The notes under the pieces are model-generated. The model did no database searches, was not told the origin of the DNA, and saw only the letters and a list, made by a program, of their open reading frames with translations. The position numbers were made by a program, and so were the translations under genes. Shown here piece by piece: positions 36,447-64,000 of a stretch of DNA of 64,000 nt. The stretch spans positions 224,001 through 288,000 of the forward strand of contig JBJBCN010000003.1 in NCBI GenBank assembly GCA_047285805.1, in the 5' to 3' direction. Numbering within the stretch: position 1 is the first letter of the stretch; each line of letters starts with the position of its first letter. This DNA is from Synechococcus sp. GTDB taxonomy: Bacteria > Cyanobacteriota > Cyanobacteriia > PCC-6307 > Cyanobiaceae.

Positions 36447-36567
36447 CAGAAGGAGGGAGATGGAACATAATCATGCCACAACCTGAAACCATGGAAAAGA
36501 AGCTAAGTCAATCTAGAGCAATCAAGAGCAACCAAAGTAGTAAGCTGATGGTGCCACTCCAGAAAAC

Positions 36568-38260: not shown

Positions 38261-38351
38261 AATCACACCAGCGAAAACTCGTGGACTACGAGTCGGTGGA
38301 GCTGTTGGCTTGTTATGGCTGCTAAGATTAAGATTAAGTTCGGACTACGTC

Positions 38352-38966: not shown

Positions 38967-40102
38967 AGATGATTCCCTTCAATAAGCCGTATCTAACAGG
39001 TGATGAGCTTATAAATATCCAGGCAGCACATCAAATAGGACAACTTGCTGGTGATGGTAATTTTACTAAAGACTGTCAGTCTTGGCTGCAGTCTTACTTT
39101 AATGCTGAACTAGCTCTCATTACTCACTCTTGTACAGCGGCCTTAGAAATGTCAGCGCTTTTGGGTGACATTAAAGCCGGTGATGAAGTGATCTTGCCAT
39201 CATATACATTCGTTTCGACAGCAAACGCATTTGCATTGAGGGGAGCCACACCCGTATTTGTTGATATAAATCCAGAGACGCTGAATGTTGATGAAGATAA
39301 GATGATTAATGCAATTACGAGTAAGACAAAGGCCCTTGTTCCTGTTAATTATGGTGGTTCTTGTTGTGATTTGGATAGGCTCGTCGAAGCCAAGATTGCA
39401 TCTTCGTTGCTTCTCATTGAGGATGCTGCACAATCAATTTTATCGACATATCGAGGAAAGCCACTCGGTTCCATTGGTGATCTGAGTACAATAAGCTTTC
39501 ATGAAACGAAGAATATTATCAGTGGAGAAGGAGGAGCCTTAATTATTAATAATCCTAATTTTTCCGCTCGCGCTGAGATTATTAGGGAGAAGGGAACTGA
39601 TCGTAGTTTGTTTTTCCGTGGGATAACTGATAAGTATACCTGGAGAGATATCGGAAGTTCGTTCTTGCCGGGTGAGTTGATCGCAGCATTCCTCAATGCG
39701 CAGCTAGTGAAGTCTTACGAAATTACCGATAGACGAAAGAGGTTATGGATGCGTTATCACACAGCTTTCGCAGATATTGAATCCATTGGAATTGTCCGTC
39801 GACCAAGAATACCGGAATACTGCAATCACAATGGACATATATATTATCTTCTGCTTAATTCAGAAGCCTCAAGGGATCAGTTTATATCCAGGATGATGGA
39901 GAAGGGGATACGATGCGTTTTTCACTATATTCCCTTACATTCTGCTCCCTTTGGAATTAAAGTCGGTAGAGTTGCTTCTGAAATGAATGCAACGAATCAG
40001 GTCTCTTCAACCATTGTTAGACTTCCTCTTTGGGTTGGACTAGAAGAATACCAAGAATACGTCATAGATGAAGCAATAAATACTCTCAAGACTCTCTTGT
40101 AG
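38963..40102 (+). CDS. wecE: dTDP-4-amino-4,6-dideoxygalactose transaminase (WecE/RffA)
   Basis: IPFNKP, SCTAALEM, EDAAQ, SFHETKN..GEGG, REKGTDRS and DKYTW..GSS. Confidence 0.9.
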   Translation: MKMIPFNKPYLTGDELINIQAAHQIGQLAGDGNFTKDCQSWLQSYFNAELALITHSCTAALEMSALLGDIKAGDEVILPSYTFVSTANAFALRGATPVFVDINPETLNVDEDKMINAITSKTKALVPVNYGGSCCDLDRLVEAKIASSLLLIEDAAQSILSTYRGKPLGSIGDLSTISFHETKNIISGEGGALIINNPNFSARAEIIREKGTDRSLFFRGITDKYTWRDIGSSFLPGELIAAFLNAQLVKSYEITDRRKRLWMRYHTAFADIESIGIVRRPRIPEYCNHNGHIYYLLLNSEASRDQFISRMMEKGIRCVFHYIPLHSAPFGIKVGRVASEMNATNQVSSTIVRLPLWVGLEEYQEYVIDEAINTLKTLL

Positions 40103-41372
40103 AAGCATTAAAGAGTTCGTATGTATATTTTAGAGTATATGCAAGCATGATTCCAAATATGGCCGGACACCATACGAAGTCAAATAGGTCTTGACTAAGG
40201 AATTGCAAACTGGGGTCATAGGGCCTGTAATTAAAAATCAAGACTGGGATGCATAATACATGCAATACAGCACAAGTAGCGCGATTTAGTTTGAATTTAG
40301 TTATCGCGCTCGTATTAATCAAGATGATTTTTGATGGATTTATAAGATGAGCATAAAAGGCAGATGCTCCAATATAAAAGAAACCTACGGATACAAGCTT
40401 GTAGTTTGCAGATGTAGCAAAGAGATACAGCAAACAAAAAGCAGATGCTCCCATTGCTGCGGTCAACGCGGACATTGTTAATTGTGGGTTTAGTCTAAGT
40501 TCTGTTGAGATATTGACTTTTTTCCCTAAGGATAAAAAAAGCATACTCGTCACTACGATGATCGAGATCTTTATAAATAAGTCGCTGTGAGAGTCAACAG
40601 CTACTAGAAGTCCATGTATCTCTCCTGGCTCTATCTGTATACGAGTGGCATTTTTTCCAGGAAGCCCCGAAGGGAATAGGATGAGTACTGCACACAATGT
40701 GGAGAATATTGATGCAACTAATATTGCTTTTTTCTTGCTAAAATGATTGCTTATAATCCCATTTAAAAAAAGCATTGGAAACGTAAAGACTTTAATGGCT
40801 GCACTCAGTAGAATCAAGACCTGGGACAAAAGCATTTTAATGCTAGTCTTGCGAGATTTATGTCTTGATTTATTTGTCAGCGGTATAACCAGACAGCCAA
40901 GAATGCACAAACTCCAAGATATCGAATCAAGTTGTCCTCTTTCAAGCATATACCTTACAGGATAAGAGAGCCAAAAGACTAAGTAAGCTAAATAAAAGCT
41001 TGTACTACCTGGAGCTCTTAAGCTGACCATAAAGACGGCGACTGCAAAAAAGGTAGCAAAAATAATAGCTAGTATGCTCGGGGATAAAAATAAAAACGAT
41101 GGCAGTACTCTTGCTAGCAGAAACGGGAGTATCGGATAATCAAATCCACCTGGAGGAACGCCATAGAATTGATCACTACAAGAACCTGTTGAGTAGAATT
41201 CAAATACTGGTTTAGAGCAAATAGCATTGATTGTAAGTATATAGATGTCCCTAAAAGGCGGGAATGCGGTTGGAATTCCTGCAAATGGTAGGCCTGCATT
41301 ATCTAAGGCATAAAAAATTACCTCGCCAATGACCAATACTGGAGGCAATACCAAGACTAGATATCTAAGCAT
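40086..41372 (-). CDS. Polytopic membrane protein, putative GT-C glycosyltransferase (GT87/DUF2029-like)
   Basis: About 10 hydrophobic segments; loop motifs PFRDI, FDYP, ERGQLD and AAIKVF recall GT87-like proteins. Confidence 0.55.
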   Translation of the reverse strand: MLRYLVLVLPPVLVIGEVIFYALDNAGLPFAGIPTAFPPFRDIYILTINAICSKPVFEFYSTGSCSDQFYGVPPGGFDYPILPFLLARVLPSFLFLSPSILAIIFATFFAVAVFMVSLRAPGSTSFYLAYLVFWLSYPVRYMLERGQLDSISWSLCILGCLVIPLTNKSRHKSRKTSIKMLLSQVLILLSAAIKVFTFPMLFLNGIISNHFSKKKAILVASIFSTLCAVLILFPSGLPGKNATRIQIEPGEIHGLLVAVDSHSDLFIKISIIVVTSMLFLSLGKKVNISTELRLNPQLTMSALTAAMGASAFCLLYLFATSANYKLVSVGFFYIGASAFYAHLINPSKIILINTSAITKFKLNRATCAVLHVLCIPVLIFNYRPYDPSLQFLSQDLFDFVWCPAIFGIMLAYTLKYTYELFNASTRES

Positions 41373-41640
41373 ATTCGGGAAGAGTATATGCCAAAATAAT
41401 CCATATTACTGTGCTGACGAAGTAGCCAATCAGCAAAGAGAATATGATCGTTATAATCTTATACCGCCAACTTGATTTGCTAGACTGCACAGAATTAAGA
41501 ATCAACAATGAGGCGCAGACCTGGAAGATCAAGAATATGATAGTCCAAACGCGAAGCGGAAAAATATCAAAACGCGAGTTAATCGCTCTTGCTGGTCCTA
41601 TCAAGATTTGAACTAGACTAGTCATAGTCAAATAGACCAC
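41365..41640 (-). CDS. Small hypothetical membrane protein
   Basis: 91 aa with 2-3 hydrophobic helices; overlaps the start of the downstream membrane gene by 8 nt. Confidence 0.5.
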   Translation of the reverse strand: MVYLTMTSLVQILIGPARAINSRFDIFPLRVWTIIFLIFQVCASLLILNSVQSSKSSWRYKIITIIFSLLIGYFVSTVIWIILAYTLPEYA

Positions 41641-47695: not shown

Positions 47696-49198
47696 ATGGC
47701 TTCAGCGCCCCTGCCCTTGGAGGCCAGCCCGATCGCCTTCGGAACCGATGGCTGGCGCGGCATCCTCGGCTTGGACATCACCGTAGAGAAGCTGCTGCCG
47801 GTGGCGGCGGCTTCGGCGCGTGAGCTCGAGGCTTCGGCTCCGGCCGGCCTGACCAGCCGCGAAGTCGTTATCGGCTACGACCGCCGTTTCCTCGCGCCCG
47901 AACTCGCCGAAGCGATATGCAGCGCCGTCCGCGGAGCCGACCTGGTGCCGGTGCTGGCGGGAGCGCCCATCCCCACTCCGGCCGCCAGTTGGGCCGTGGT
48001 TGAGCGTAAAGCCCTTGGCGCACTGGTCATCACTGCGAGCCATAACCCGCCAGAGTGGCTGGGCCTCAAAATCAAAGGCCCCTTCGGCGGGTCGGTAGAA
48101 GGCGACTTCACACAGCGCGTCGAACGGCGGCTTCAGGCGGGCGGCATCTCCGTGCCGGTCCAAGGGGAGACCCTGCGCTTTGACGCCATGGGGACCTACC
48201 TGGCCGGACTGAAAGCCAAGGTCGACACCCAGTCCCTGAGCGACGGACTGGAACGTCTCGGCCTGCAGGTGATCGTCGATCCCATGCACGGCTCAGCGGC
48301 CGGCGGCCTAAGCCGCCTGCTGGAGGGCGCCGCCCAACGCGATCACCTGCGCGAAATCCGCTCGAACCGCGACACCCTCTTTGGCGGCAATCCACCGGAA
48401 CCCCTAGCCCCCTATTTACAGGAGCTGATCACGGAGGTGCGGGCTTCAACCCTGACGGGCAGGCCAGCGGTGGGCATCGTGTTTGACGGCGATGGCGATC
48501 GCATCGCTGCAGTGGATGAACACGGACGCTTTTGCAGCACCCAGCTGCTGATGCCACTGTTCATCGATCACCTGGCCCGCGCCAAGGGGCTGAGCGGTTC
48601 GGTCGTGAAAACCGTGAGCGGCTCGGACCTTATGCAACTGGTGGCCGAAGACCTGGGCAGGCCCGTGCTGGAGAAAGCAGTGGGCTTCAAGTACATCGCG
48701 GCGGAAATGCTCAGCAGTGACGTGATGGTGGGCGGCGAAGAGTCAGGCGGTGTGGGCTTCGGGAGCCACCTACCGGAGCGCGATGCTCTCTACGCCGCGC
48801 TGCTCTTGATTGAGGCCCTCGTAGAGGGAGGAAAGCCCCTTGGCGTCCGGGTCAGCGAACTCCAAGAGCGCTGCGGAGGTGCCGCGGCCTATGACCGCTT
48901 GGACCTGCGACTACGAGACATGGCCACCCGGCAACGGCTCGAGCAGTACCTAGCCAGCACGCCACCGGCAGAGGTCGCCGGGATCGCGGTGCAAGAGGTG
49001 ATCACAACCGACGGGGTAAAACTGCGTCTGGGCCCCAGCCACTGGTTAATGCTGCGCTTCTCCGGCACCGAGCCATTGCTGCGGCTCTACTGCGAGGCAC
49101 CGTCAGAATCAAGAGTAAAAGAAGTTCTTGCGTGGGCGCAAAGTTTCGCAGGGAGGCAGTCTGAAGCAGAGACATCCCGAAGAGAAACCAGGCCATAA
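47696..49198 (+). CDS. Phosphoglucomutase/phosphomannomutase
   Basis: FGTDGWRG, ITASHNP, DGDGDR, GGEESGG and RFSGTEP. Confidence 0.94.
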   Translation: MASAPLPLEASPIAFGTDGWRGILGLDITVEKLLPVAAASARELEASAPAGLTSREVVIGYDRRFLAPELAEAICSAVRGADLVPVLAGAPIPTPAASWAVVERKALGALVITASHNPPEWLGLKIKGPFGGSVEGDFTQRVERRLQAGGISVPVQGETLRFDAMGTYLAGLKAKVDTQSLSDGLERLGLQVIVDPMHGSAAGGLSRLLEGAAQRDHLREIRSNRDTLFGGNPPEPLAPYLQELITEVRASTLTGRPAVGIVFDGDGDRIAAVDEHGRFCSTQLLMPLFIDHLARAKGLSGSVVKTVSGSDLMQLVAEDLGRPVLEKAVGFKYIAAEMLSSDVMVGGEESGGVGFGSHLPERDALYAALLLIEALVEGGKPLGVRVSELQERCGGAAAYDRLDLRLRDMATRQRLEQYLASTPPAEVAGIAVQEVITTDGVKLRLGPSHWLMLRFSGTEPLLRLYCEAPSESRVKEVLAWAQSFAGRQSEAETSRRETRP

Positions 49199-49223
49199 TG
49201 ACGAATAGGTAATTGCCAAGTGA

Positions 49224-50153
49224 ATGAAGGCTCTAGTCACAGGTGGCGCAGGCTTCATCGGCGGTCATATCGCTAGAGACCTCTGCAGAAAGGGAGAGGA
49301 CGTAACCGTAATTGACAATTTGAGAACGGGAAACATGAAGAATGTGCCGGCTTCATCAAGGTTCCTGAGATTAGACTTAGGAAGAGACAGTCTAGAAGAG
49401 GCTTTCAAGGAAGGTTATGATGTTGTTTATCATTTTGCGGGCCAGAGCTCAGTAGAGATCTCTTATTCCGACCCTCTATACGACCTAGACACGAACTGTA
49501 GATCTACGCTTCAATTGCTAGATCTTTGCAGAAGAAGCGGCACAAATAGATTCATTTTTGCCAGCACTATGTCTGTCTACGGAGGAGAGGGTGAAATGCC
49601 GAAGGATGAAAGTGCACCAAGAAACGGGAAGAATTTTTACGCAATCTCAAAGAAGGCAAGTGAAGACTACCTTTGGATTTATGAGAGGTTTGGAATAAAA
49701 AGTACTGCGCTACGGCTCTTCAACATCTACGGACCAGGTCAGAATTTAGAAAACCTTCGGCAAGGCATGCTCTCTATCTACCTGGCTCAAGCAATGAGAA
49801 CTGGCAAGATTCTTGTCAAAGGAAGCCTTGAGAGGACAAGAGACTTTGTCTATATAGACGATGTCATAGGTGCAACGAGAGCCGTGACAGCAAGTGAATC
49901 ATGCTGGGGCAGAGCCTTGAATGTATGCTCGGGCAAAGAATTCAGCGTTAAAGACATAATAGACTTAATATCCAAGGCACTAATGAAAGATGTGAGCATA
50001 GAGATTGCAGCAGGTACACCCGGAGATATTGACCGGATGGTTGGGTGCCCGGAATTGCTTAAAGAGTTAACCGGGTACGAATGCCGAGTCGGTCTACAAG
50101 ATGGAATAGAATCGATGATAAGCTCAGTCAAAGGAGACAATTACTATGCATAG
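49224..50153 (+). CDS. NAD-dependent epimerase/dehydratase (extended SDR)
   Basis: TGGAGFIG, ASTMSVYG, YAISK, FNIYGPGQ and RDFVYIDD. Confidence 0.9.
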   Translation: MKALVTGGAGFIGGHIARDLCRKGEDVTVIDNLRTGNMKNVPASSRFLRLDLGRDSLEEAFKEGYDVVYHFAGQSSVEISYSDPLYDLDTNCRSTLQLLDLCRRSGTNRFIFASTMSVYGGEGEMPKDESAPRNGKNFYAISKKASEDYLWIYERFGIKSTALRLFNIYGPGQNLENLRQGMLSIYLAQAMRTGKILVKGSLERTRDFVYIDDVIGATRAVTASESCWGRALNVCSGKEFSVKDIIDLISKALMKDVSIEIAAGTPGDIDRMVGCPELLKELTGYECRVGLQDGIESMISSVKGDNYYA

Positions 50154-50892
50154 CAACAGAAAGATAGGGATTGTAACTGGATGCGGCAAAGGAATTGGAA
50201 GAGCAATTCTGGAGGAACTCGGCAAAAAGCCCGAATGGCATTTGGTAGGTATTCACAGGAGTGGGGTTGATAAAGAGCGTCAGCTTAAACAAGTAATAGG
50301 GAATAGGTTGAAGCTAATCCAGGGTGACGTGACATCAACAACGATTTGGGATGAGGCGATTGATGCAGCTACCAATGCATTTGGCAATTCACCGAAACAC
50401 TATATAGCGAATGCTGGCATGAGGTGTAGGGATAGGATAGAGAATGTTTCAACTGAAAGGCTGGGACAATTGTGGAATACCAACTACTTTGCTCTGCGCG
50501 AGATGATTTGTACAATGACAAGGAAAAAAGTAATTGAGACTTCTAATGTAGTATATATATCTTCCATAGTTGGTCAGCTTGGATTTGCCGATTTAGATGA
50601 TTATGGAGCCACTAAAGCCGCTTGCGACTCGTTACTACGATCAATGGCATCAAGGCACGGACAAGCCAGGTTCAACTCAATCGCACCAGGCTTTACAAAA
50701 AGCTCATACGCCGAAGCATTTGAAAAGAATCAAAGAGATCTGCACGAATGGACATTAGAAAGAGCACGAATGCGCAGGTGGGGTGAGTGCCAAGAAGTCG
50801 CGAAGGTTGTTGAGTTCTTGTGCTCAGAAAGCAGCTCATTCATTACAGGTCAAGTCATCAACGTTGATGGAGGTTGGACTACAAATGCCTAA
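50146..50892 (+). CDS. Classical SDR oxidoreductase
   Basis: TGCGKGIG, NAG, ISS, YGATK, NSIAPG and ITGQVINVDGG. Confidence 0.9.
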   Translation: MHSNRKIGIVTGCGKGIGRAILEELGKKPEWHLVGIHRSGVDKERQLKQVIGNRLKLIQGDVTSTTIWDEAIDAATNAFGNSPKHYIANAGMRCRDRIENVSTERLGQLWNTNYFALREMICTMTRKKVIETSNVVYISSIVGQLGFADLDDYGATKAACDSLLRSMASRHGQARFNSIAPGFTKSSYAEAFEKNQRDLHEWTLERARMRRWGECQEVAKVVEFLCSESSSFITGQVINVDGGWTTNA

Positions 50893-51673
50893 TGCAAGAT
50901 TTATGGTTCTGATTCCTTGCCGCCTTAATTCGACAAGGCTACCAGGGAAAGCGCTGAAAAAACTAGGCAACAAAACGCTGATTGAGACTGTTTATTCCAA
51001 TGCAAAGCAAGCATTAGAAGAGATACGCCTTGATGCAGACATTGCAGTATGTACTGACTCAACAGAGATCGTGGCTGTACTCGCCGCAGGTAGGGTGCCT
51101 ACATACATGACTTCTAGCACTCACAAGAACGGAACAGAGCGGATTGCCGAGTGCATAAGGAGATACGACTTAAAGCATGAGTTTATAATCGACATACAGG
51201 GAGACGAGCCCTTTGTCAATGCAGAGATTTTAGAGGTTGTAGCACATGAAATTCTGGCTCAGCAAGATCGAAACAGTCAACGTTCATACATTGTCCTCCC
51301 GCATCAGCAAATGAGCTACGAGGAAGCTGTAAGGGAAAGCGTCGTAAAACTTGTGCTCAATCGCCATGGCAATGTCATGTACATGAGCAGAGCACTGATC
51401 CCACAAACACACAAACCGAACGACGCAGCCAATTCTGTGCTTTACGCGAAACATCTTTCTGTAATTGGTTTCACAAGATCTGCGTTGTCACGGTATGCAG
51501 AGTTAGAAAGAGGTGAGAATGAATCACGTGAGGATATTGAGTTATTGCGAGCCCTTGAAGATGGAATCATGATAGTATCTCCCAGATCAGAATCCAGCAC
51601 ATTTTCAATTGACACAGAAGATGACCTGCATAAGGCTAGAGGCCTTATATGCACAAACGACGATGGCAACTAA
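50885..51673 (+). CDS. KdsB-like (CMP-Kdo synthetase family) cytidylyltransferase
   Basis: IPCRLNSTRLPGKAL, GTERIAE, IQGDEP, MSRALIP, ELLRALE and IDTEDDL; ATG 50885 overlaps the SDR stop. Confidence 0.87.
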   Translation: MPNARFMVLIPCRLNSTRLPGKALKKLGNKTLIETVYSNAKQALEEIRLDADIAVCTDSTEIVAVLAAGRVPTYMTSSTHKNGTERIAECIRRYDLKHEFIIDIQGDEPFVNAEILEVVAHEILAQQDRNSQRSYIVLPHQQMSYEEAVRESVVKLVLNRHGNVMYMSRALIPQTHKPNDAANSVLYAKHLSVIGFTRSALSRYAELERGENESREDIELLRALEDGIMIVSPRSESSTFSIDTEDDLHKARGLICTNDDGN

Positions 51674-51682
51674 AATGGTTAA

Positions 51683-52834
51683 ATGAGCATGACTGGAGAC
51701 TCAATTTGTGCTTACGCAGGTTCAGATTTTGCATATAAGATTTTCATCTGTGCTGAACAACAGGATCTAAAGACGTTTGTTGAAGAAGTCGTCAGAAGTA
51801 AGTCTTCAATTGTATTGTTCATTGACTCGTACATTGTAGATTCTCCTGCCTGCAAAGACATTATTCAAGAGTTCACAATTGCCCTAGATGAGGGCATAGG
51901 ATGCACACTGTTTGTCAAATGCTTAGATGCCGGGAAACAAGCAAAGAGCCTGTCAACATTAGGTGATCTAGCTGAATGGTTAGTTGACACGGGAGTTCAG
52001 AGAGATAGTTTGTTTGTGGGCATTGGTGGAGGAGTTATTGGGGATTTGGTTGGACTTCTTTCTGCACTTTATTATAGAGGTGTAGATCTAGTACATATCC
52101 CAACCAATTTATTGTCGATGACGGATTCGGCAATAGGAGGTAAGACTGCTGTCAACACTAGTCGACATGTAAATAGTCTCGGTACGTACAAGCATCCTAT
52201 AGGAACACTCGTTTATCTGCCATTCTTGGAAACGCTGCCTACGAGAGATCTTTGTGCCGGCTTAGCAGAAGTATTAAAGATTAGTCTCTTAAGAGATGAT
52301 GGGCTTTTAGAAATACTTGAAAGCGCAGACAACCTGCACTCATTACTTAGAAATGGGCAAGGTGCACTTATTATAAAGAAGGCCATAGAGTATAAACTGG
52401 TATTTACTGGCAGCGACATTGAAGAAAGGCATAGAAGGCTATTTCTGAATATCGGGCATACATTCGGACATGCCATTGAGGCAATCCAGGATTTGCGGAA
52501 TGAAGAGTATTACCGTCACGGCGAGGCTGTGGCACTTGGTCTGCTATGTAGCTCATATATATCTGAATCATTGTATGGTATTAATGTGCTAGACAGGGTA
52601 AAGACGTTGTTAGAGAAGTACAACCTGCCTGTCAAGTTAGATCGAATTTTTCATGAAGGTTTTTCCGATGCAGATGAGCTTGTTGAGAGTTTAGTCAGGC
52701 TATCATTAAAGGATAAAAAAGGTCAGCGCGGAAAACTGCGCATTGTTTTAATGGAGAACTATTTTTCACCTGTTATTTTGGAGACTGATAATAGGAGACT
52801 CCTGATAGAGGCGTTTAAATGCATAATAGATTAG
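51683..52834 (+). CDS. 3-dehydroquinate synthase (AroB)-like sugar-phosphate cyclase
   Basis: GGGVIGD, YYRG, PTNLLSMTDSAIGGKTAVN, AEVLK, RLFLNIGHTFGHAIE, HGEAV and DKK. Confidence 0.87.
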   Translation: MSMTGDSICAYAGSDFAYKIFICAEQQDLKTFVEEVVRSKSSIVLFIDSYIVDSPACKDIIQEFTIALDEGIGCTLFVKCLDAGKQAKSLSTLGDLAEWLVDTGVQRDSLFVGIGGGVIGDLVGLLSALYYRGVDLVHIPTNLLSMTDSAIGGKTAVNTSRHVNSLGTYKHPIGTLVYLPFLETLPTRDLCAGLAEVLKISLLRDDGLLEILESADNLHSLLRNGQGALIIKKAIEYKLVFTGSDIEERHRRLFLNIGHTFGHAIEAIQDLRNEEYYRHGEAVALGLLCSSYISESLYGINVLDRVKTLLEKYNLPVKLDRIFHEGFSDADELVESLVRLSLKDKKGQRGKLRIVLMENYFSPVILETDNRRLLIEAFKCIID

Positions 52835-54102
52835 TTAGGGAGATAGTCAGAAGAAGCAATTATCGATGGGGCCGGATAAGCAAGCGAGATGAAGCAGCAA
52901 AGTATGTGGGGGCTACTATCAGGGATCTGCTACGTCGAGCATATTACGCTTTCAGAGTTTTAGTCCAAGCAGAGCGCATTAATAAGCTAGAGAATATTTG
53001 CAGCAAAAGACAGTTAGTTGCCTATAGTAGAAATAGCGATGGATCAATCAATCATTGGTTAGACAAATACTTTGGTGAAGGGACAGAGTTGATTGACTCT
53101 GTAATCGTTGAGATATCAGCATGCGGAACGGTAAATCTCTGGGAAAGCAAAATGATTGCGGGATCATATGTCCAGTTAGTGCTGCCAGGCCTTGCGTGTA
53201 GGGATTATGTTCTTTTGTTATTAAAAGCAATACGCGTGTATAAAGAGGCGATAAGTCAGCGATCGGCATATTATGCGCAGGTCGAGTCATTCAGAATAGC
53301 AATAGACTACATTCTTAAGCATTTTGCACCGAGCAGTATTGCTTTCCCGTTTGAAGGACAATATTGGGAACAGGTAATTTGCATGATGAGTCGAATAAAT
53401 GGATGCAAGACATATGGCGTATTGCATGCTTTGAATATTAGCTGCTCATTGAATAGTCGACTTGAATTTCATAATGTGCTTTCCCCGGATCATTTTATCT
53501 CGCAATCAGTATACACAAGTTTATTCCTGCAAAAGTTCTTTGGATGGCCTAGACATAAAGCTTGCCTGAAGCGACTTAAGGGTAAGTATCCCTTGAGTCG
53601 TGTCATCGGTGTGCAGAATAAAATAAAAGACACTTCGGATGCCAATGAGATCTTGATACTTGGTAGCTACATGCTGACTGAAGATCTTTCAGCCTTTAGG
53701 TTGCTTAAGTTGCACTTCCCTGGCGCAGTTTACTACTATAAGTCTCACCCACTTAGACGTTCAGACAAAGAGTTTATGTTGTCAATCCATAAGCATTGTG
53801 AGATTCTTCTATGGGATGGAGAAGATAGTGTAGTTTTTGATATCATATTGTCACCACTATCTAGTACAGTTTCTCTAGAATTATTCTTGGCCGGTCAGGA
53901 AAATTTGCTTGTGTATGGACTTTCTAATGGATGCACGCCAAACCCATTTGAGCAGTTTGAGATCAAGCTTCGTACTGAAGCAGCGGCGGATGATGCCAAG
54001 CTATGGTCTTTAGAAAGTGAGCAATCTGTAGCTTCTATAAAAGAGGAGATTTGCGCCCATCAACCCTTAGAAATCGGAAAGCTGGCCCGCTGTCCCAAGT
54101 GA
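52819..54102 (+). CDS. Hypothetical surface-carbohydrate protein, candidate HP-motif GT-B transferase
   Basis: FEGQYWEQ, YGVLH, PD, ILILGSY and YKSHP recall CMP-ulosonate transferases and related surface-carbohydrate proteins; family not certain. Confidence 0.5.
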   Translation: MHNRLVREIVRRSNYRWGRISKRDEAAKYVGATIRDLLRRAYYAFRVLVQAERINKLENICSKRQLVAYSRNSDGSINHWLDKYFGEGTELIDSVIVEISACGTVNLWESKMIAGSYVQLVLPGLACRDYVLLLLKAIRVYKEAISQRSAYYAQVESFRIAIDYILKHFAPSSIAFPFEGQYWEQVICMMSRINGCKTYGVLHALNISCSLNSRLEFHNVLSPDHFISQSVYTSLFLQKFFGWPRHKACLKRLKGKYPLSRVIGVQNKIKDTSDANEILILGSYMLTEDLSAFRLLKLHFPGAVYYYKSHPLRRSDKEFMLSIHKHCEILLWDGEDSVVFDIILSPLSSTVSLELFLAGQENLLVYGLSNGCTPNPFEQFEIKLRTEAAADDAKLWSLESEQSVASIKEEICAHQPLEIGKLARCPK

Positions 54103-54144
54103 AGTCTTTTGATAGGTTAAAATAGAAGTTGGCCAAAACAACCA

Positions 54145-56184
54145 ATGACGAGTATTAGTCCTAAATACATAAGGTATATAGATGGGCTAAGAGCACTTGC
54201 TGTTGGTGGTGTGTTCATGAACCACCTCAACGAGGAGCTGCTGAAGAGTGGTTTTTTGGGTGTTGATATATTCTTTGTGATTTCAGGTTTTGTAATTACG
54301 GGGTCGCTTGTAAAGAGCAGAGATCTTTCTCTCGGTGCTTTTTTAAAGCATTTTTATAAACGACGGATCCTAAGGATATTTCCTGCCTTACTATTTTATC
54401 TTCTTGTCGTTGGGTTACTTACAGCATTAATGGTACCCGAGCCATCTTTCTACCTGAAGACAGGCACAAGTGCTGTGTTCGGCTATTCGAATATATTGCT
54501 TGCTAAGGAAGCTGTGAATTATTTCGGCTCTGATGCTGCTTTTAACCCTTTTACTCAGACATGGTCTCTAGGTGTTGAAGAGCAGTTCTATGTATTAATA
54601 CCTGTAATACTCTGGTTGTTCTTTAGATTTAGAGGGCATACTCAATCTGATGGCGACCAAGAGTTGCCTGCTCCCCTGGTCAGATTTATAAGCCTGTTTT
54701 CATTGCTATCACTTTTGTTTTTTGGTGCGGTAGCCGTTATCAGACCACATTTTGCATATTTCTTGATGCCCTTCCGATTTTGGGAAATGGGTCTTGGTGT
54801 CTTAGCATTCCATTTTAGGAACAAGGTTTTTGCGAAAGGGAACCAGCAGCAAGTCCTTTGTAAAGCCATATCAGCAGCTTCCCTTATTATTATCGGCTGT
54901 AGCCTATTTGCGATTAGGGATTATCAGATAGTTTCGACAATAAGTGTGTGTCTTGCGACTACGCTTTTAATAGCTACAACAGCGGATTTGTCTCCTGCCT
55001 CGAGGATACTTTCCTGGAGGCCGTTGGTTTACTTAGGGAAGATTTCCTACTCATTATATCTATGGCATTGGGGCTTGATTGCTTTAAGTAAGTGGAGTTT
55101 CGGGTATACCAGATATTCTTACGTGTTAGTAGTAGTCATGACTTTTGTGCTATCGGTTGCCTCTTATCACCTTATAGAGCAGAAGTTCAGATACATCAAG
55201 CAAAGTCCTGACAGATTAGTTTTTGGCGTTGGTATATCATCCCTTCTTTTGTCATCAGCTGTTTTGTTCGGACTTGAGAATATTTCTAATCTTATTCCAA
55301 TTGGCGTTAATAATAGGCACAAGCCACAAAATATGCTCGTGAACCAGGGGCATATCCATGATCAATTAACGAAGTGCCATACTCCTAAAGATATTTCAAG
55401 GATGGCGAAAAAGTGCTTAGGTACTGAGATAAGTCTATCCTCGAATAAACAAGCGGTTTATATATTAGGTGATAGTCATGCGTCACAACTCTACCCCTCG
55501 GTTGTAAGTGCATTAGACGGACTGCGACGCAATGCTTACGTCTTTTATTTGGCAGAGAATGGCTTTGTGATGAGTATTACAAGCTCAGGTTTTCTGAATC
55601 AGTTTCTTGAAAGAGATGCTTGTTTTGGTTTTACAAGTAGTTCTTGCCTTCCCAACAGCTTTTCTATAATTAAAGACATATTGAGAAACCGACTGAGGCA
55701 CGGAGACGTTGTGATCTTTTCGCTTGCAAGCTATAGGGTAAGTAAGGATAGTGAGGCGAAGCTGCCGCGGAGCTACAATCCGGAATCTGTTTCCAACCTT
55801 GAACATAGCCTCAAGGAATTAGGTAGAGCAATTAAACCTACAAAAGCAACTCTCGTTCTCCTTGACGATATCATTGCAACATGCAGGTATCCCGGGTTGA
55901 ATTACGAGTTCCTAGTCTTGGATAAAGGTAATATCGAGGCATGCACAATCGATAAGTCTATTGGCATTCAAGATAGGGCAGGTTTTACAATGGCGCTCAA
56001 GAATTCAGCTAAAGCTTTAGATAACGTTTTGTATTATGATTTTGCCAGTGAGCTATGCGATAAGAATACCTGCTCTGTTTTAGATCCACGGAGTAAGCGT
56101 CTTCTCTATTCAGACAGCCGCAACCATTTCACAGCTACCTATCCTGACCCATTAAGGGATCAGATGATGAGAGTACTTGAGTAG
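54145..56184 (+). CDS. OafA/OatA-like O-acyltransferase (Acyl_transf_3 plus SGNH)
   Basis: IDGLRALAV, GVDIFFVISGF, RRILRIFP, WSLGVEEQFY, SYSLYLWH, GDSHA and DSRNH. Confidence 0.92.
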   Translation: MTSISPKYIRYIDGLRALAVGGVFMNHLNEELLKSGFLGVDIFFVISGFVITGSLVKSRDLSLGAFLKHFYKRRILRIFPALLFYLLVVGLLTALMVPEPSFYLKTGTSAVFGYSNILLAKEAVNYFGSDAAFNPFTQTWSLGVEEQFYVLIPVILWLFFRFRGHTQSDGDQELPAPLVRFISLFSLLSLLFFGAVAVIRPHFAYFLMPFRFWEMGLGVLAFHFRNKVFAKGNQQQVLCKAISAASLIIIGCSLFAIRDYQIVSTISVCLATTLLIATTADLSPASRILSWRPLVYLGKISYSLYLWHWGLIALSKWSFGYTRYSYVLVVVMTFVLSVASYHLIEQKFRYIKQSPDRLVFGVGISSLLLSSAVLFGLENISNLIPIGVNNRHKPQNMLVNQGHIHDQLTKCHTPKDISRMAKKCLGTEISLSSNKQAVYILGDSHASQLYPSVVSALDGLRRNAYVFYLAENGFVMSITSSGFLNQFLERDACFGFTSSSCLPNSFSIIKDILRNRLRHGDVVIFSLASYRVSKDSEAKLPRSYNPESVSNLEHSLKELGRAIKPTKATLVLLDDIIATCRYPGLNYEFLVLDKGNIEACTIDKSIGIQDRAGFTMALKNSAKALDNVLYYDFASELCDKNTCSVLDPRSKRLLYSDSRNHFTATYPDPLRDQMMRVLE

Positions 56185-56247
56185 ATAAAAGCTATGACGC
56201 ACTAAAGTCAGCTACAATAAACATGTACTTTTCGGCCTCAATACGTA

Positions 56248-57042
56248 GTGTTCACAAGACTTCTGCGATACTTTTGGGATGCAAGGCTTGAGTCCACAAC
56301 CGCTGTTAAGGCAAAGGGTCAGTATCTGTTCGCTGTTTACGACTTTGGGCCAATCACTCGGATGAGGGCGAAGACCTTTGAAGTGAAGGAACCAGATACG
56401 CTTAAATGGATTGATAGCTTTAAAGAAGGCGATACTTTTCTGGATATAGGTGCAAACATAGGCATTTATAGTATATATTGCGCGATGCGCGGGGTTCGAA
56501 CTGTTTGCATAGAACCAGATGCACTAAATTTTGCATTATTAAACCTAAATACGAGGCTAAACTGCTTAGGTGGGCTAATAAGTTCTTACTGTGTCGCAGT
56601 TTATGACGCATGCAAGTATTCTCTCTTTTATAGTTCTTCTAATACATGGGGTGGTGCATTAAACAGTTTTGATCAATCGCCGACAGAATCAAGTCAATAC
56701 ACAAGGCTTGACTCTGAGATCTATGCTCAAGGATGTTATGGAACTACTTTGGATGGTTTCTTATGTTCAATAGATTTTTTTCCATCTCATATCAAGATTG
56801 ATATTGATGGAAACGAATTAGCAACCCTAAGAGGTGCATCAAAGACTCTACATGACACCAGACTCAAGTCGGTACTTATAGAACTTGACGAGTCAGACAC
56901 AGAGTATAAAGACTGCCTCAGCCACCTAGAGTCGTCAGGCTTGGTCTTAGCTTCAAAGCAAATATCTGACTACGTAAAGAGTGCGGGACTAATCAAAAAT
57001 ATTAGCAATCATATTTACTATCGACTGCAAAGTCAGAATTGA
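56248..57042 (+). CDS. FkbM-family methyltransferase
   Basis: KEPDT, FLDIGANIG, IEPD and IKIDIDGNE..LRGA. Confidence 0.88.
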   Translation: MFTRLLRYFWDARLESTTAVKAKGQYLFAVYDFGPITRMRAKTFEVKEPDTLKWIDSFKEGDTFLDIGANIGIYSIYCAMRGVRTVCIEPDALNFALLNLNTRLNCLGGLISSYCVAVYDACKYSLFYSSSNTWGGALNSFDQSPTESSQYTRLDSEIYAQGCYGTTLDGFLCSIDFFPSHIKIDIDGNELATLRGASKTLHDTRLKSVLIELDESDTEYKDCLSHLESSGLVLASKQISDYVKSAGLIKNISNHIYYRLQSQN

Positions 57043-57070
57043 CTTTTGCCTTGGTTCTGAAGTGGATGTA

Positions 57071-57886
57071 TTAGCTATGAAATATATTTAGGCATGAATC
57101 ATCGAGGTCAGGGTTCTGGAATATTACTGGTCTGCAAATCGGCATTCGTGACTTTATAACTAATAGACCTTCAAGATTTGAGATTCTTAGTGACTTTGTT
57201 CCCTTAGCTGAAATTCTTAGCGAAGACAGTACTTGATGATAACTGGTTTGGGCATGGCTTTTTATTGTTATTTCTAAGTTTTTGTCAGTCGGATTATTGA
57301 AGACAAGATCATATATGGATTCAGGATCAAATAGGTAGTTAGGAATGTATTCAAATTCATACCGCCGCTGCTTCGCTGCGTTTTCCTCATAACTTTGAGG
57401 GCTCATGCCTCCAAAGTTACCATGAACAACACTCCCCATTTGACCAACGAGTTTTGATTGACGAAGATAGCCTCTATGAAGAGGTATGGGTTGAATGTCG
57501 TTTACACAGAAGTCATATTGAGTATCTTGGTTAAGATAGACGCTGTGCGTAAAAGAAATATACGGATGGTTAGGCGCTACTGAAGTGCGCGGTGGATCAA
57601 GTTCAAAACGAGGAAAGTACTTATCTGTGTAGAAACGATTTTTCCCCATGGGAAGGCCTTCTGCGTTAAAAAAGTGAAATTCATGGGTTGCATTGCAAGA
57701 TGAGGTCATCAGTAATGCGTAGATATTCTCAGCGAGAAACGTGGAGCTGGCATAGTCAGCTCTCATCACAAATAAGTCGCTATATTCCTGTGCAGGAGCA
57801 AGAGCAGAGCTTAGAGAGTACGGCTTAAAGTCTCTATTCTTGAGGTGTTCAAGTAGTATAGCTATTTTGGCTTTAGTATCAGTCAA
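57071..57886 (-). CDS. Hypothetical protein
   Basis: 271-aa ORF in AT-rich DNA; soluble, beta-rich appearance; HGNFGG motif; no family recognised. Confidence 0.65.
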   Translation of the reverse strand: MTDTKAKIAILLEHLKNRDFKPYSLSSALAPAQEYSDLFVMRADYASSTFLAENIYALLMTSSCNATHEFHFFNAEGLPMGKNRFYTDKYFPRFELDPPRTSVAPNHPYISFTHSVYLNQDTQYDFCVNDIQPIPLHRGYLRQSKLVGQMGSVVHGNFGGMSPQSYEENAAKQRRYEFEYIPNYLFDPESIYDLVFNNPTDKNLEITIKSHAQTSYHQVLSSLRISAKGTKSLRISNLEGLLVIKSRMPICRPVIFQNPDLDDSCLNIFHS

Positions 57887-58781
57887 TGTGTTCAGCCCAT
57901 GAAGATTTCAGCACGGATACTAGCTCAAACTTACTGCTTCCCCATAGCATTTCATGGGGTGGATGAGTATGTTCTACGTCTATTTCTTCGTACTGTGAAT
58001 TGGCTGATATATTCAGAAAGACTGGTATGAATGATGCAGATTTCGAGACGAGCAAATGCGAATCATCAAACAGGGATGGAAATAGACTTGTGATGTTAAT
58101 TAAGTTTGCTGAATTGGTCTTGACGCTAATCTGACCAACCGTCTCTTTAGTATTTGGGTTTAATATTGAGATTTGATGGCTACTTGAGTTCTCCGCGTCA
58201 GCCACTAAGTTCATGAAGAAGCAATATGTCATACATTCTGCTGGGCTTCTATCTGCTCGCAGACTATCAAAACTTAGGAAAGAGCCATTGCATCTCTGTG
58301 CCATACGAGCCGGATATTCACCTTGATAACACGCGACTGAGCGTCCATACTTAAATTGATAAGAAACTCTCTCTGATACAGGCGCCAGGTCAAGCTTTCG
58401 TGAACACGGATCCGGTAGATATCGAGTCTCCTTAGGGCTGTTCACAGAAAGAGTCGGAATCATAATCAAAAATGAAGAAGGCTCATAAGAAGAAGCGCTT
58501 ACCACTCTGCTATCCCCAGGTTCGCATTTAATCGTTTCGAGTAGATGCCACTTGAAAGAATTCAAGTTATATATATGCAGATAAATAGTTTTTGTCAAAT
58601 AACTTAGATCTGAGCCTTTGCTGATCTGATTTGCAGGAGAGTTGACGAATAGCAAGTTCGTCGAAATAATCCTGGAATGTTGACCTAAATCGTTTTGGAA
58701 GGAGTGTGTGAAAGAAGGGAAAAGAGGGAAGTAGCAACTCATGCAAAAGATGTTAGGCGGACGGCCGCGATTATGCGACAA
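57879..58781 (-). CDS. Hypothetical protein
   Basis: 300-aa ORF (true start may be ATG 58742); YQGEYP and VEHTHPP motifs; overlaps the next gene by 8 nt. Confidence 0.65.
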   Translation of the reverse strand: MSHNRGRPPNIFCMSCYFPLFPSFTHSFQNDLGQHSRIISTNLLFVNSPANQISKGSDLSYLTKTIYLHIYNLNSFKWHLLETIKCEPGDSRVVSASSYEPSSFLIMIPTLSVNSPKETRYLPDPCSRKLDLAPVSERVSYQFKYGRSVACYQGEYPARMAQRCNGSFLSFDSLRADRSPAECMTYCFFMNLVADAENSSSHQISILNPNTKETVGQISVKTNSANLINITSLFPSLFDDSHLLVSKSASFIPVFLNISANSQYEEIDVEHTHPPHEMLWGSSKFELVSVLKSSWAEHID

Positions 58782-58803
58782 TTAGGTCGACTGTAAGTGA
58801 CGC

Positions 58804-59406
58804 ATGGAGTATCTAACAATCGCGAGCAGTAATCAGGGAAAATTAAATGAATTTCGTGAGCTCTTGGTTCATGTCCCTGTGTATGTGCAGAGTCAACCCG
58901 ATGGTTTAAACATACAGGAAACTGGTGCAACCTTCTCCGCCAACGCCCGCCTCAAAGCGGAAGCCGTCGCACAAGCAACGGGACAGTGGGCCTTGGCGGA
59001 CGACTCCGGCCTAAGCGTTGATGCCCTCGGTGGCGCGCCTGGGGTGCACTCGGCCCGCTACGCCACTACGGATGCCGCACGCATTGAGCGTTTGCTCCAG
59101 GAGCTCACGGCAGCCGGTGCCCAAGACCCAATCTCCCGTTCAGCCCGCTTTACCGCTGCCTTAGCTCTCGCTGCCCCCAGCGGACAAGTAGTGCTGGAAG
59201 TGGAAGGGCACTGCCCCGGCCAAATCCTGACGGAAAGCCGCGGTGATGGCGGCTTTGGCTACGACCCCGTCTTCTACGTGCCGGAAGTAAAGCTCACCTT
59301 TGCGGAGATGCCGAAGGAGCTGAAAGCGGAGTTGGGGCATCGAGGTCGCGCCTTCGCTGCCCTGAAACCCCAACTGCAGGCCCTCTTGGCTCAAGACAGG
59401 CAGTAA
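58804..59406 (+). CDS. rdgB: Non-canonical purine NTP pyrophosphatase (RdgB/HAM1)
   Basis: ASSNQGK, ETGATF, ADDSGL, PGVHSARY, GFGYDPVF and HRGRA. Confidence 0.94.
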   Translation: MEYLTIASSNQGKLNEFRELLVHVPVYVQSQPDGLNIQETGATFSANARLKAEAVAQATGQWALADDSGLSVDALGGAPGVHSARYATTDAARIERLLQELTAAGAQDPISRSARFTAALALAAPSGQVVLEVEGHCPGQILTESRGDGGFGYDPVFYVPEVKLTFAEMPKELKAELGHRGRAFAALKPQLQALLAQDRQ

Positions 59407-61772: not shown

Positions 61773-63167
61773 TTAACGCAGGCGCCTTGCGCGGAGAAAC
61801 AACGCGGAGGGGAATGCATAGAGGACTAAAAAAACCGGGAGAACCTTCACAAAGGCCATGAACTCACCCACACCACCAGTGACCACGCCCAAATACACAA
61901 CGGGCACAAGCAAAAAACCCGCTACCTCTATAGAAAGAAACCTGAGCAAGAACCAGAGCAATACACAAATTCCTAATCGGGAAACGGCAAGCCACATGGC
62001 ATAAGACAAGACCGCCAAAGCACTGTCGAATTGGAGAAAAAATGGCAGCGCCTGGGTCTCAACTAAATCGACTTGATTTTTCCCGTAGCATTGACCAATC
62101 AGATATTCAGGAAGTCGGGATGGCTCATATCCGAGCAATCGCCTCAACGGAAGAGGTTGCGAACCAATGAACTCTGATGCTAAAGGCCCTTTGAGCAAGC
62201 TCAACTCAGGCGCGAATGGGCATTTCTTTTCCAAAATCAGATTTCGCGCATGAAGCGCTGTCGAAGAGGAGCCAACACCACTCAAACGATAGCCAAAGTC
62301 TAGAGATAGACGCCGATGCAATGAAAAGAAATGCTGCTCGATTTGGTCTACATTTGGAGCAAAACCTGTTGGACCAAACTGACCCTTAAGCACCGTTGGG
62401 AACGAGTATCCGACGACCAACAATGAACATAAGAGTGCAGAAAGCGTGAGCAGCTTACGTAACGCATGCTGCTGCCAAACCCCCAAAAGGGACGCTAGCG
62501 AGAGCGCAAAAGAAATAGAAGAGATTAGACAGTAAAGACGCTGGCGAAAAACAACAAATAGAATAATGTTCAAAAGACATGCAGTCAATACAAAATAAAG
62601 ATACGACCGTTTTTTGACCGAAACCCCCAAAACCCCAAGGGCAATTGCGGGTCCAGCAGGCACAGAGAAGTAGGTCGAAACAATCGCCTTATCAAAGAAA
62701 TTAAGTGAGCCAAAGTCAAAATATTCCGTACCAATGATTGAACCAAAGCGAAAAGCAATGATTGCGAGAAGCGCAGTTCCAACGAAGCCGTAGATACGCA
62801 GAGAAAACGATTTGACAATCTGCAATATCTGCAGCTCACAAGCAACAAGTCGCCTAGGAAAATTAGCAACTTGCGGACCAGCAATCAGCAATAGAAGGGA
62901 AAGAACAGAGGAGGCCCCAACCATCAAAGCGGCTTTCTGAAATAAGGGAGAATAAATATTCCAGTTGAGGCCTGACGAAGGATTTTCAATGAGATCTGGT
63001 CTCAGCGCCCCAACGATGTTCGTCAAAGGACCAAAAAACCAAAACCAATATAACGAAATCAATAGAGACGCAGCCAAAAGCAAAGAGCTTCTGCCATATA
63101 GTCGTCGAGAGACAAGACATACCCCGAGCAGGGCCAAGGCAACCAAGAGCTCAAGAATTAAAAACAC
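61773..63167 (-). CDS. Polytopic membrane protein, Wzy-like polysaccharide polymerase candidate
   Basis: About 10-11 hydrophobic segments, an RQR loop and a large periplasmic loop with YRLSG; lower GC than the core. Confidence 0.5.
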   Translation of the reverse strand: MFLILELLVALALLGVCLVSRRLYGRSSLLLAASLLISLYWFWFFGPLTNIVGALRPDLIENPSSGLNWNIYSPLFQKAALMVGASSVLSLLLLIAGPQVANFPRRLVACELQILQIVKSFSLRIYGFVGTALLAIIAFRFGSIIGTEYFDFGSLNFFDKAIVSTYFSVPAGPAIALGVLGVSVKKRSYLYFVLTACLLNIILFVVFRQRLYCLISSISFALSLASLLGVWQQHALRKLLTLSALLCSLLVVGYSFPTVLKGQFGPTGFAPNVDQIEQHFFSLHRRLSLDFGYRLSGVGSSSTALHARNLILEKKCPFAPELSLLKGPLASEFIGSQPLPLRRLLGYEPSRLPEYLIGQCYGKNQVDLVETQALPFFLQFDSALAVLSYAMWLAVSRLGICVLLWFLLRFLSIEVAGFLLVPVVYLGVVTGGVGEFMAFVKVLPVFLVLYAFPSALFLRARRLR

Positions 63168-63216
63168 ACTCCCTTCCCTGACCTAATATGGGGAGACTCC
63201 ACTTGAGCTCAAAAAG

Positions 63217-64000
63217 ATGTTGGGCTCAATTGTAGCCTTCGCCCTTGGCCTCAACCCTCCCAGGGCAGTACTGCTATCTGGGATCGCCTTAGCTGGACAT
63301 TCCGCATATCTACTCCTGCGTGAAAAACAAAGGAATAAAAAGTTTTCACTATCAATAACTGTCAGATCTAGCTTTCAAGGATTGCATCTTGAAAGCAAGG
63401 GTAATCAATCACTACTCGTCCTTGGGCTACTTTTGACCTTTGGATTTTTGGTTACTTATTCTAACCTGATCAACGACCAAGACAGCACTTCTTCGACCAT
63501 AGAATACTTGGCATTAATTCCTATCTGCATATCTCTCGCCGCAGGCAGGCTGAATGACATAACCCCAAAAGAACTCACGCAATTAGCAATTTCCTACTCA
63601 GCTGGGAGCCTCATTTACGTTTTAGCATGCCTAATTTATACAAGATCACAGGGAGACTTCAATCTCTTGTCTCTGTTCTTTAAACAATCGCACAATGAAC
63701 TACTCGCTCCCTGGGGACACTTAAACAATTCCGTCAATCTAAGGACAATTGAACAGTCGCTACTCTTCCCAATATCCTTGCTTCCCGTGTCGATTGTCGC
63801 TTTTGCAAGAAGCAAAGCAAAAGCGACAGGCTGGCTTTTCGCTTTACTCACTGGAACGCTTGCGCTTTTTCTTTCACGCGCATTCAATTCATATTTCACT
63901 CTGTTGGCTTTATCTCTGAGCAGTGCGGTAGCGCTCGCTTCGGTTACGTCGACACAAGACAGAATGAAACATTGCTTTATAAGATGCAAAAAGCTCATCA
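63217..64000 (+). CDS. Partial (3'-truncated) polytopic membrane protein, O-antigen ligase/polymerase-like candidate
   Basis: Read manually: frame open from ATG 63217 to the window end (MLGSIVAFALGLNPP...SYSAGSLIYVLAC...APWG..NLRTIEQ); several TM segments; absent from the ORF track. Confidence 0.6.
   Translation, partial: MLGSIVAFALGLNPPRAVLLSGIALAGHSAYLLLREKQRNKKFSLSITVRSSFQGLHLESKGNQSLLVLGLLLTFGFLVTYSNLINDQDSTSSTIEYLALIPICISLAAGRLNDITPKELTQLAISYSAGSLIYVLACLIYTRSQGDFNLLSLFFKQSHNELLAPWGHLNNSVNLRTIEQSLLFPISLLPVSIVAFARSKAKATGWLFALLTGTLALFLSRAFNSYFTLLALSLSSAVALASVTSTQDRMKHCFIRCKKLI

Follow-up and report, generated by a model that had tools for sequence, protein, structure and literature searches.

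The window analysed here, 64,000 nucleotides of a contig of Synechococcus sp. (JBJBCN010000003.1), contains a low-GC islet which carries genes for a KdsB-type cytidylyltransferase, two short-chain dehydrogenases/reductases (SDRs), a paralogue of AroB, the 3-dehydroquinate synthase (DHQS) of the shikimate pathway, and a protein with a His-Pro (HP) motif (Table 1). A sequence-only reading had described these as a co-oriented cluster in an AT-rich stretch and had proposed that they make a carbocycle activated with cytidine monophosphate (CMP). Re-reading of the sequence bears out the arrangement: the five open reading frames (ORFs) lie on the same strand, overlaps between them are 8, 8 and 16 nt, and a 9 nt gap precedes the AroB-like gene, the start of which is perhaps the second ATG (yielding a protein of 381 aa, as in P0001-P0006). 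GC content per gene is 41–45% in these five genes versus 59–65% in the flanking genes, and Pfam and NCBIfam searches detect, as had been stated, no KdsA, NeuB or other shikimate gene among the nine islet ORFs.

Table 1. Islet of the window and the genes it carries.
Feature	Positions	Strand	Basis or remark
Low-GC replacement islet, phosphoglucomutase-family to Ham1-family gene	49102..58915		GC; blastn to L018
Extended SDR, NDP-sugar epimerase/dehydratase type, PF01370; accessory	49224..50153	+	Pfam; homologues (41–54% identity) in 3/40 other module-type loci
Classical SDR, PF13561, module-specific family; core gene	50146..50892	+	Pfam, alignment, linkage
KdsB-type cytidylyltransferase, PF02348; core slot; ATG at 50885	50885..51673	+	Pfam, NCBIfam, residue alignment
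AroB paralogue, PF01761+PF24621; core gene	51683..52834	+	Family scores, tree, residues, fold
Predicted GT-B transferase, H310-P311 motif (HP protein)	52819..54102	+	Fold prediction, HHalign
AT3-SGNH O-acyltransferase	54145..56184	+	Family scan; without counterpart at other module loci
FkbM-family methyltransferase	56248..57042	+	Family scan; homologues at 5 other module loci
Protein of 271 aa without assigned function	57071..57886	-	Common to G125 islet
Protein of 300 aa without assigned function	57879..58781	-	Homologues at 3 other module loci

The genome G125 (locus L018), from the same genus, is 85% similar to the window up to position 49101 and again from position 58916 (blastn). Since the similarity breaks at these two points, the islet arrived with its own ends of both flanking core genes, so that the phosphomutase gene is replaced at its 3' end and the Ham1 gene at its 5' end. 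In G125 the phosphomutase and Ham1 genes abut, and a 34–37% identical version of the same three genes is found on the opposite strand at the other side of the Ham1 gene. As judged from these sequences, the site looks like a swappable surface-glycan site. A scan of the window for promoters and terminators yielded matches at chance level only.

The AroB paralogue

The AroB-like protein scores 252.3 bits against the AroB equivalog TIGR01357 (cut-off 305) and 176.8 bits against TIGR04425, the EboD-type cyclases (cut-off 400), thus falling below both thresholds, and it is predicted to adopt the two-domain DHQS fold (pLDDT 87, pTM 0.87; TM 0.85 to 6lla). A closer kinship to sedoheptulose-7-phosphate cyclases (EEVS, DDGS) or to DOIS than to DHQS was considered and rejected, 4p53, 2d2x and 5tpr scoring 108, 104 and 61 bits, respectively, versus 120–163 bits for DHQS entries. 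In a maximum-likelihood tree of 96 rows, obtained by a quick search with eight near-duplicate or truncated loci excluded and with many rows of biased composition, the paralogue belongs to a clade of 48 rows (SH-aLRT 99), from which 37 housekeeping AroBs are separate, and the other aroB of the same genome groups with those of cyanobacteria (support 97). The protein hence lies outside core cyanobacterial AroB, in agreement with the sequence-only reading. In the databases these paralogues are labelled '3-dehydroquinate synthase', which, for members of the clade, may be a misannotation.

The catalytic and metal positions (E. coli R120, D136, K142, N152, E184, K187, K226, R240, L243, N244, H247, H264 and K323), which we take to include the residues that bind the metal, carboxylate and phosphate in DHQS, are kept in 79/79 housekeeping and 126/126 module-type rows. 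E73 of the E. coli enzyme is Glu in all 79 housekeeping rows versus none of the 126 module-type rows (K85 in the window protein), and the position of K151 is occupied by V163 in the window protein; K151 served to define the two groups, so that its count is circular. Both residues presumably contact NAD, and their change may represent a compensating swap. Further replacements in the module-type rows are F157 to Tyr (125/126), L263 to Arg (120/126) and Q126 to His (106/126). The equivalent of E. coli H251, the proton-relay His position, is His in the window protein (H263, corresponding to His275 in A. nidulans) and Gln in one subclade (P0049, P0067, P0081-P0083, P0085-P0088 and L016-L018), of which G342, G281 and G125 still keep the module. 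A partial second copy of the paralogue, comprising 168 aa of the C-terminal part, is located at L015:6683-7189 (G034), 2 kb downstream of the intact one.

Both the AroB-like and the KdsB-like gene are extra copies, as the sequence-only reading required. The source genome (2.37 Mb, 100% complete) possesses a second aroB on another contig, 33% identical to the islet protein, a separate kdsB, 30% identical to the islet enzyme and located about 1 kb from a kdsA-like gene, and also a DAHP synthase (DAHP being the 7-phosphate of 3-deoxy-D-arabino-heptulosonate) and a NeuA/NeuB set. All four relatives with the module carry two PF01761 genes, the second being an ordinary aroB, and three of these four have a separate kdsB plus kdsA. 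In the genome G034 (99% complete, one contig), five genes match those of the window at 30–54%, and a genome search found there neither a kdsA match nor a KdsB-like gene beyond the module copy. The corresponding search of G342 found no neuB match, though the module is present.

Distribution and linkage

Among the 150 best rows of a profile search of 1.84 billion representatives, 28 belong to the clade. Source names of clade members include Prochlorococcus (Prochlorococcus sp. MIT 1341 and P. marinus MU1402), Synechococcus (Synechococcus sp. KORDI-52), an uncultured Sulfurovum and an Opitutales bin. The clade is sparse, being represented in 5 of 401 genomes of this family and, within the genus, in 2 of 45. 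With a threshold of E <= 1e-103, profile A2 had matches in 0/350 and 0/351 genomes of two proteobacterial class samples, with one genome unscored; in a third sample it matched in 2/251 genomes, both times an ordinary aroB in a shikimate operon, so that the score threshold of this profile lacks specificity by itself. From plasmid and phage collections, only matches of 29–35% identity were obtained, and the SDR profile found no match among viral sequences. The module is also present, as AroB paralogue plus SDR, on the viral contig L179.

At each of the 19 clade loci flanked by 2 kb or more on each side, the module SDR and a cytidylyltransferase lie within 3.5 kb, versus neither gene at any of 128 AroB loci with the usual Lys-Asn motif. 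Eight rows, fragmentary or divergent, in which the motif could not be read are outside these counts; the profiles used for the two partners derive from module genes, and several of the loci are nearly identical to one another. The control set comprised at least 80 loci from the genome-collection scan, with no module-type gene among the matches listed. Nineteen further clade members reside on short contigs, where both partners are found for 11, one for 5 and none for 3. The linkage holds at 30–37% identity and in reshuffled order: SDR-KdsB-AroB, AroB-SDR-KdsB, and KdsB followed by a gap and AroB-SDR all occur, with the AroB paralogue and the SDR as the fixed pair. The module AroBs constitute a separate clade, and the module genes strictly co-occur. 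The pairing of AroB-like and KdsB-like genes noted in the sequence-only reading is accordingly conserved elsewhere, with the SDR adjoining.

Two other kinds of gene recur near the module. A radical SAM/SPASM gene, in many cases with a second SDR gene after it, is found in 8 loci (e.g., L038:3337-4966, L048:9081-10710 and L061:3593-5211) and may tailor the product. In 7 loci (e.g., L029:3944-4591, L044:6671-7273 and L023:6411-7112), the gene just before the AroB paralogue codes for a degenerate NeuA-like protein devoid of the CTP motif and of any Pfam match.

Partner proteins

The classical SDR has the triad S140, Y153 and K157 and three invariant arginines (R38, R93 and R95). Its likeness to FabG, gluconate 5-dehydrogenase and KduD is about equal, so that its substrate cannot be read from the sequence. 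The sequence-only reading had counted both SDRs among the core of the pathway; this does not hold for the extended SDR, which has homologues at so few other module-type loci (Table 1) that it is best regarded as accessory and outside the conserved core.

The KdsB-like protein scores 207 bits against the KdsB subfamily model NF003952 (cut-off 193) and 133 bits against TIGR00466 (cut-off 155), and stays below the cut-off of three other models. The residues for binding of cytidine triphosphate (CTP) and metal, R10, R15, K19, Q98, D100 and D235 of the E. coli enzyme, are kept as R13, R18, K22, Q105, D107 and D243, and so are the positions of R157 and H181. E. coli Y185, Q211 and G183 are replaced by I194, L220 and S192, and the pocket is more hydrophobic where Y185 and Q211 stood; all three are kept in 5/5 housekeeping enzymes, and Y185 and Q211 in 3/31 module enzymes. 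In a model of E. coli KdsB, Y185 binds the C5-OH of Kdo, 3-deoxy-D-manno-octulosonate (PMC12199768), and we found no published statement on the role of Q211. The module cytidylyltransferases do not form one group: a tree with long branches, in which the deep joins are unsure, separates a main clade of 26 rows, a lineage of 3 rows in which Y185/Q211 are canonical, another of 2 rows, and a NeuA-type fusion. In the source genome the gene for Kdo-8-phosphate synthase lies beside the other kdsB. Because G034, which carries a close copy of the module, shows no kdsA match, Kdo appears unlikely as the substrate of the KdsB-like enzyme. The genome content of G034 and the changed Y185/Q211 positions thus both argue against an enzyme that activates only Kdo, the outcome that would have undermined the sequence-only reading.

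The HP protein has no Pfam or NCBIfam match. Its H310-P311 motif, situated in the C-terminal domain, is present in 9/9 aligned rows, from which a GT-B fold is predicted (pTM 0.76). The model matches GT-B structures with Z-scores of 8–12.5, the top rows being UDP-GlcNAc 2-epimerases (12.5), tied with polysialyltransferase; 5wc6, a polysialyltransferase, is the best solved CMP-dependent match (Z 11.0, rmsd 5.2, 262 aligned), and TagF-like folds also match. HHalign relates the protein at 96.8% to TIGR04326-like proteins, which lie beside the module in 9 other loci, and at 95% to a second family, which does so in 6. The transferase candidates of family F13 were rejected as relatives (1% match only). 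At L237 a TIGR04326-like gene adjoins NeuB, with no AroB-like gene. Hence, the modelled GT-B fold and the distant TIGR04326 kinship support the proposal that the HP protein is a transferase.

Evidence for the substrate

Two other loci add a DAHP synthase to the module. On L179 an MptE/Maf-like gene comes after the AroB paralogue and SDR, and next to it, two genes after the AroB paralogue, a fusion of a NeuA-type cytidylyltransferase with a DAHP synthase; the DAHP synthase part scores 409 bits against NF006421 (cut-off 335) and keeps the KPRT motif, which we take to be DAHP-specific. In this fusion (L179:10495-11991, also P0137-P0143) the place where DAHP synthases usually have an N-terminal regulatory domain is taken by the CMP-transferase domain. 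It is found in 7 protein clusters of 64–97% identity, a search of viral sequences returned its own contig only, and its nearest named unfused relatives are from Marinimicrobia. At L029 the first module gene overlaps with one for a synthase of the AroF/G/H type (476 bits, cut-off 173), and the locus shows no transferase. Because of these two synthases, one of them fused to a cytidylyltransferase, and of the kept DHQS pocket, DAHP, one of the substrates named in the sequence-only reading, is likely the input.

Discussion

Our findings suggest that the genes very probably constitute a single pathway dedicated to a surface glycan. The earlier pathway reading hence stands in so far as it joined the genes, and becomes doubtful in that it took a saturated quinate-like carbocycle to be the transferred residue. 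The module likely diverts DAHP into a CMP-activated seven-carbon sugar acid destined for a surface glycan, and as its product we tentatively favor a CMP-activated, non-cyclised 7-deoxy or 6,7-unsaturated heptulosonate, ahead of the alternatives discussed below. Such an acidic surface building block is probably undescribed: we found no description of the module and no paper on a DAHP-derived sugar of this kind in the literature covered, which excludes most subscription journals, and two Leptospira rfb papers (PMC10958091, PMC9736851) contain no mention of dehydroquinate in their main text.

The pathway to such a product would start with DAHP from the housekeeping DAHP synthase or, in the two other loci, from the copy in the module. 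The AroB paralogue would then oxidise C5 and eliminate the C7 phosphate, as DHQS does. With the phosphate lost by elimination, no phosphatase is needed, and the lack of a KdsC-type phosphatase in the module fits this. In the step that is the weakest of the proposal, the final aldol addition onto C2 would be avoided, either since the opened enol is protonated to a 2,6-diulosonate or since C2 is already capped with CMP. The SDR would reduce the remaining ketone to a 3,7-dideoxy (or 6,7-unsaturated) heptulosonate with intact anomeric carbon, from which the KdsB-like enzyme would make a CMP-ketoside that the HP transferase moves by sialyl- or Kdo-type chemistry. The extended SDR, the acyltransferase and the methyltransferase would act as local tailoring enzymes. 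E. coli DHQS halts before ring opening on 2-deoxy-DAHP, and its last two steps are largely spontaneous (PMC7144000).

What favors ordinary ulosonate chemistry are the varied fillers of the cytidylyltransferase slot, with at least three KdsB lineages (one with Y185/Q211) and a NeuA-type domain, together with the arrangement at L237; the non-cyclised route would need one change, in or around the AroB step. Several observations weigh against this route. The window protein has retained the full set of catalytic DHQS residues. The aldol reaction is described as spontaneous once the ring can open (PMC7144000), so that avoiding it needs a change, and none was located in the window protein; those members of the superfamily that are listed in PMC4426668 are cyclases. 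CMP on C2 may fail to fit a pocket with unchanged lining, and at L236 a second AroB lineage with E73 and K151 kept is found beside a KdsB-like gene and a TIGR04326 transferase, so that the changes fixed in the clade may be neutral. Moreover, (i) the link to DAHP comes from two other loci and not from this genome, (ii) L030, a locus close to L029, has no synthase there, (iii) the best structure matches of the classical SDR are generic FabG-type enzymes, and (iv) in the available flanking sequence of several module loci, an HP-type transferase is not seen.

The carbocycle of the sequence-only reading is the main rival, and we consider it possible but the less probable outcome: DAHP would be converted to 3-dehydroquinate and by the SDR to quinate or an epimer, which would receive CMP on its tertiary hydroxyl and be transferred as an ether by the GT-B protein. 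The DHQS fold (TM 0.85) and the full set of catalytic residues speak for it, as do the spontaneous cyclisation after elimination (PMC7144000) and the existence of a cyclase, nucleotidyltransferase and pseudoglycosyltransferase logic in acarbose synthesis (PMC9200736). The KdsB pocket keeps R157 and H181, yet is more hydrophobic at the Y185/Q211 positions. A tertiary alcohol is, however, harder to deprotonate than a hemiketal, and KdsB-type catalysis would have to achieve this. The attacking hydroxyl must be deprotonated by KdsB (PMC3149649); sialyl transfer passes an oxocarbenium-like state, and CMP-quinic acid is, according to a cited title, the basis of sialyltransferase inhibitors (PMC8470674). 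For the cyclitol transferase VldE, the olefin of the donor was proposed to be critical (PMC3441724). The last step of DHQS consumes the anomeric carbon, so that the reduced product, quinate, would yield a CMP ester of a saturated tertiary alcohol, an adduct with neither ring oxygen nor double bond to stabilise a cation (PMC8470674, PMC3441724). The carbocycle is doubtful because such a non-allylic CMP-quinate cannot form an oxocarbenium ion and because four cytidylyltransferase lineages fill the slot: several families of cytidylyltransferases and of transferases would each need new chemistry, for two hard steps. No dehydratase or kinase family recurs near 40 module-type loci, as scanned with one or few representatives per family. 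A quinate-type residue from a CMP donor, which we regard as doubtful to the same degree, would be a sialic-acid mimic lacking a glycosidic bond, transferred at a saturated tertiary carbon or via acyl-CMP; no enzymatic precedent for this was found in the papers examined.

Further alternatives appear less probable still. The module might act on another ulosonate phosphate (Kdo-8-phosphate or a nine-carbon one), or might only epimerise or deoxygenate, with DAHP not being the substrate of the cyanobacterial copies. The presence of kdsA and neuB in the source genome, of NeuB-like genes near the module in 7 loci, and an identity of only about 36% between the window AroB copy and the DAHP-synthase-linked copies are in line with this. 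We consider it unlikely, as G034 has the module without a kdsA match and G342 without a neuB match, the DHQS substrate residues are kept, and the module AroBs share one clade with the DAHP-synthase-linked ones. Less probable again is the activation of the quinate carboxylate as acyl-CMP by the KdsB-like enzyme, with quinate ending up on the glycan as an ester- or amide-linked substituent. CoaB provides a precedent for acyl activation with CTP, and an acyltransferase follows the module here, yet it was not found with the module at other loci; the recurring neighbour is the GT-B HP protein, and we know of no GT-B enzyme that uses acyl-CMP. In the model of KdsB, both the C2 hydroxyl and the carboxyl are near Mg-A (PMC3149649), which speaks for this proposal. 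Quite improbable, finally, is that the genes are redundant passengers, surplus copies of a DHQ synthase and of a CMP-Kdo synthetase which travel together by descent with no pathway. The KdsB-like protein passes one KdsB subfamily cut-off, and many loci are close kin, so that the counts are not independent; against this reading stand the linkage at 30–37% identity in reshuffled order, the lack of kdsA in G034, the fact that the module SDR family is never beside an ordinary aroB, and the fusion of DAHP synthase to a cytidylyltransferase in L179.

When compared with known systems, the module protein shares with AroB (TIGR01357; PF01761 + PF24621) the fold, about 30% identity and the metal, carboxylate and phosphate residues. 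It differs in scoring below the TIGR01357 cut-off, in forming a separate clade, in being an extra copy, in its fixed changes at E73, K151, F157, Q126 and L263, and in residing in glycan islets and not with shikimate genes. With the CMP-Kdo and CMP-nonulosonate pathways (KdsA/KdsC/KdsB; NeuB/NeuA) the module has in common that a sugar acid phosphate derived from phosphoenolpyruvate would be dephosphorylated, activated with CTP and moved by an HP-motif GT-B protein. In contrast to these, it has an AroB paralogue and an SDR instead of KdsA, NeuB and KdsC, its input is likely the seven-carbon DAHP, and the Kdo-binding positions are changed. The GDP-valienol routes to acarbose and validamycin (EEVS, reductase, kinases, AcbR/ValB, AcbS/VldE) likewise combine a cyclase homologue, a reductase, a nucleotidyltransferase and a GT-B protein in one cluster, but start from sedoheptulose-7-phosphate, employ kinases, place GDP on a cyclitol phosphate, use an allylic donor and lead to secreted metabolites; the module has a cyclase homologue of the DHQS type, uses CMP and lacks a recurring kinase or dehydratase. 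Caryose and bradyrhizose, carbocyclic sugars of O-antigens, keep the anomeric carbon, unlike quinate. They show that sugars with carbon rings do occur in bacterial surface glycans (PMC9671505), and no link between them and the module was found.

If the product is not cyclised, it would add to the Kdo and sialic acid class a seven-carbon member derived from DAHP. Its maker would be a DHQS paralogue that halts before the ring is closed, a case relevant to the old question of how far the enzyme itself controls the DHQS cascade. If it is a carbocycle, the glycan residue would involve unusual transfer chemistry, and one of the quinate type would resist phage enzymes of the sialidase and Kdo-hydrolase type. 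In either case, the module would connect surface variation, in picocyanobacteria as well as in other microbes of aquatic habitats, with the shikimate pathway.

Related cassettes were observed elsewhere. The one at L236:970-11421 (G131) represents a second type, which comprises, besides the KdsB-like and AroB-like genes, an FkbM gene and a full TIGR04326 member; its other genes we take to encode an HpcH-like aldolase, an oxidoreductase and a 2-hydroxyacid-dehydrogenase-like protein. A third AroB-like clade, with a KNQ motif and 100% support, is found on the viral contigs L196:4344-11639 and L207:4326-11650, where the neighbours are presumably NeuB-like, thiamine-enzyme-like, SDR, kinase-like and DegT-like; this cassette could build branched or carbocyclic higher sugars.

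Within the islet of the window, the protein of 300 aa has counterparts in the G125 islet, in L040 and in L041, and otherwise only unnamed look-alikes. A second low-GC islet of the window, at positions 35727-41640, encodes a methyltransferase-like protein, a GT2-like protein, a GNAT protein, a methyltransferase, a DegT-family aminotransferase and a membrane protein. A third low-GC stretch, at positions 61773-64000, starts with a membrane protein of 464 aa without Pfam match, which is possibly a polysaccharide polymerase.

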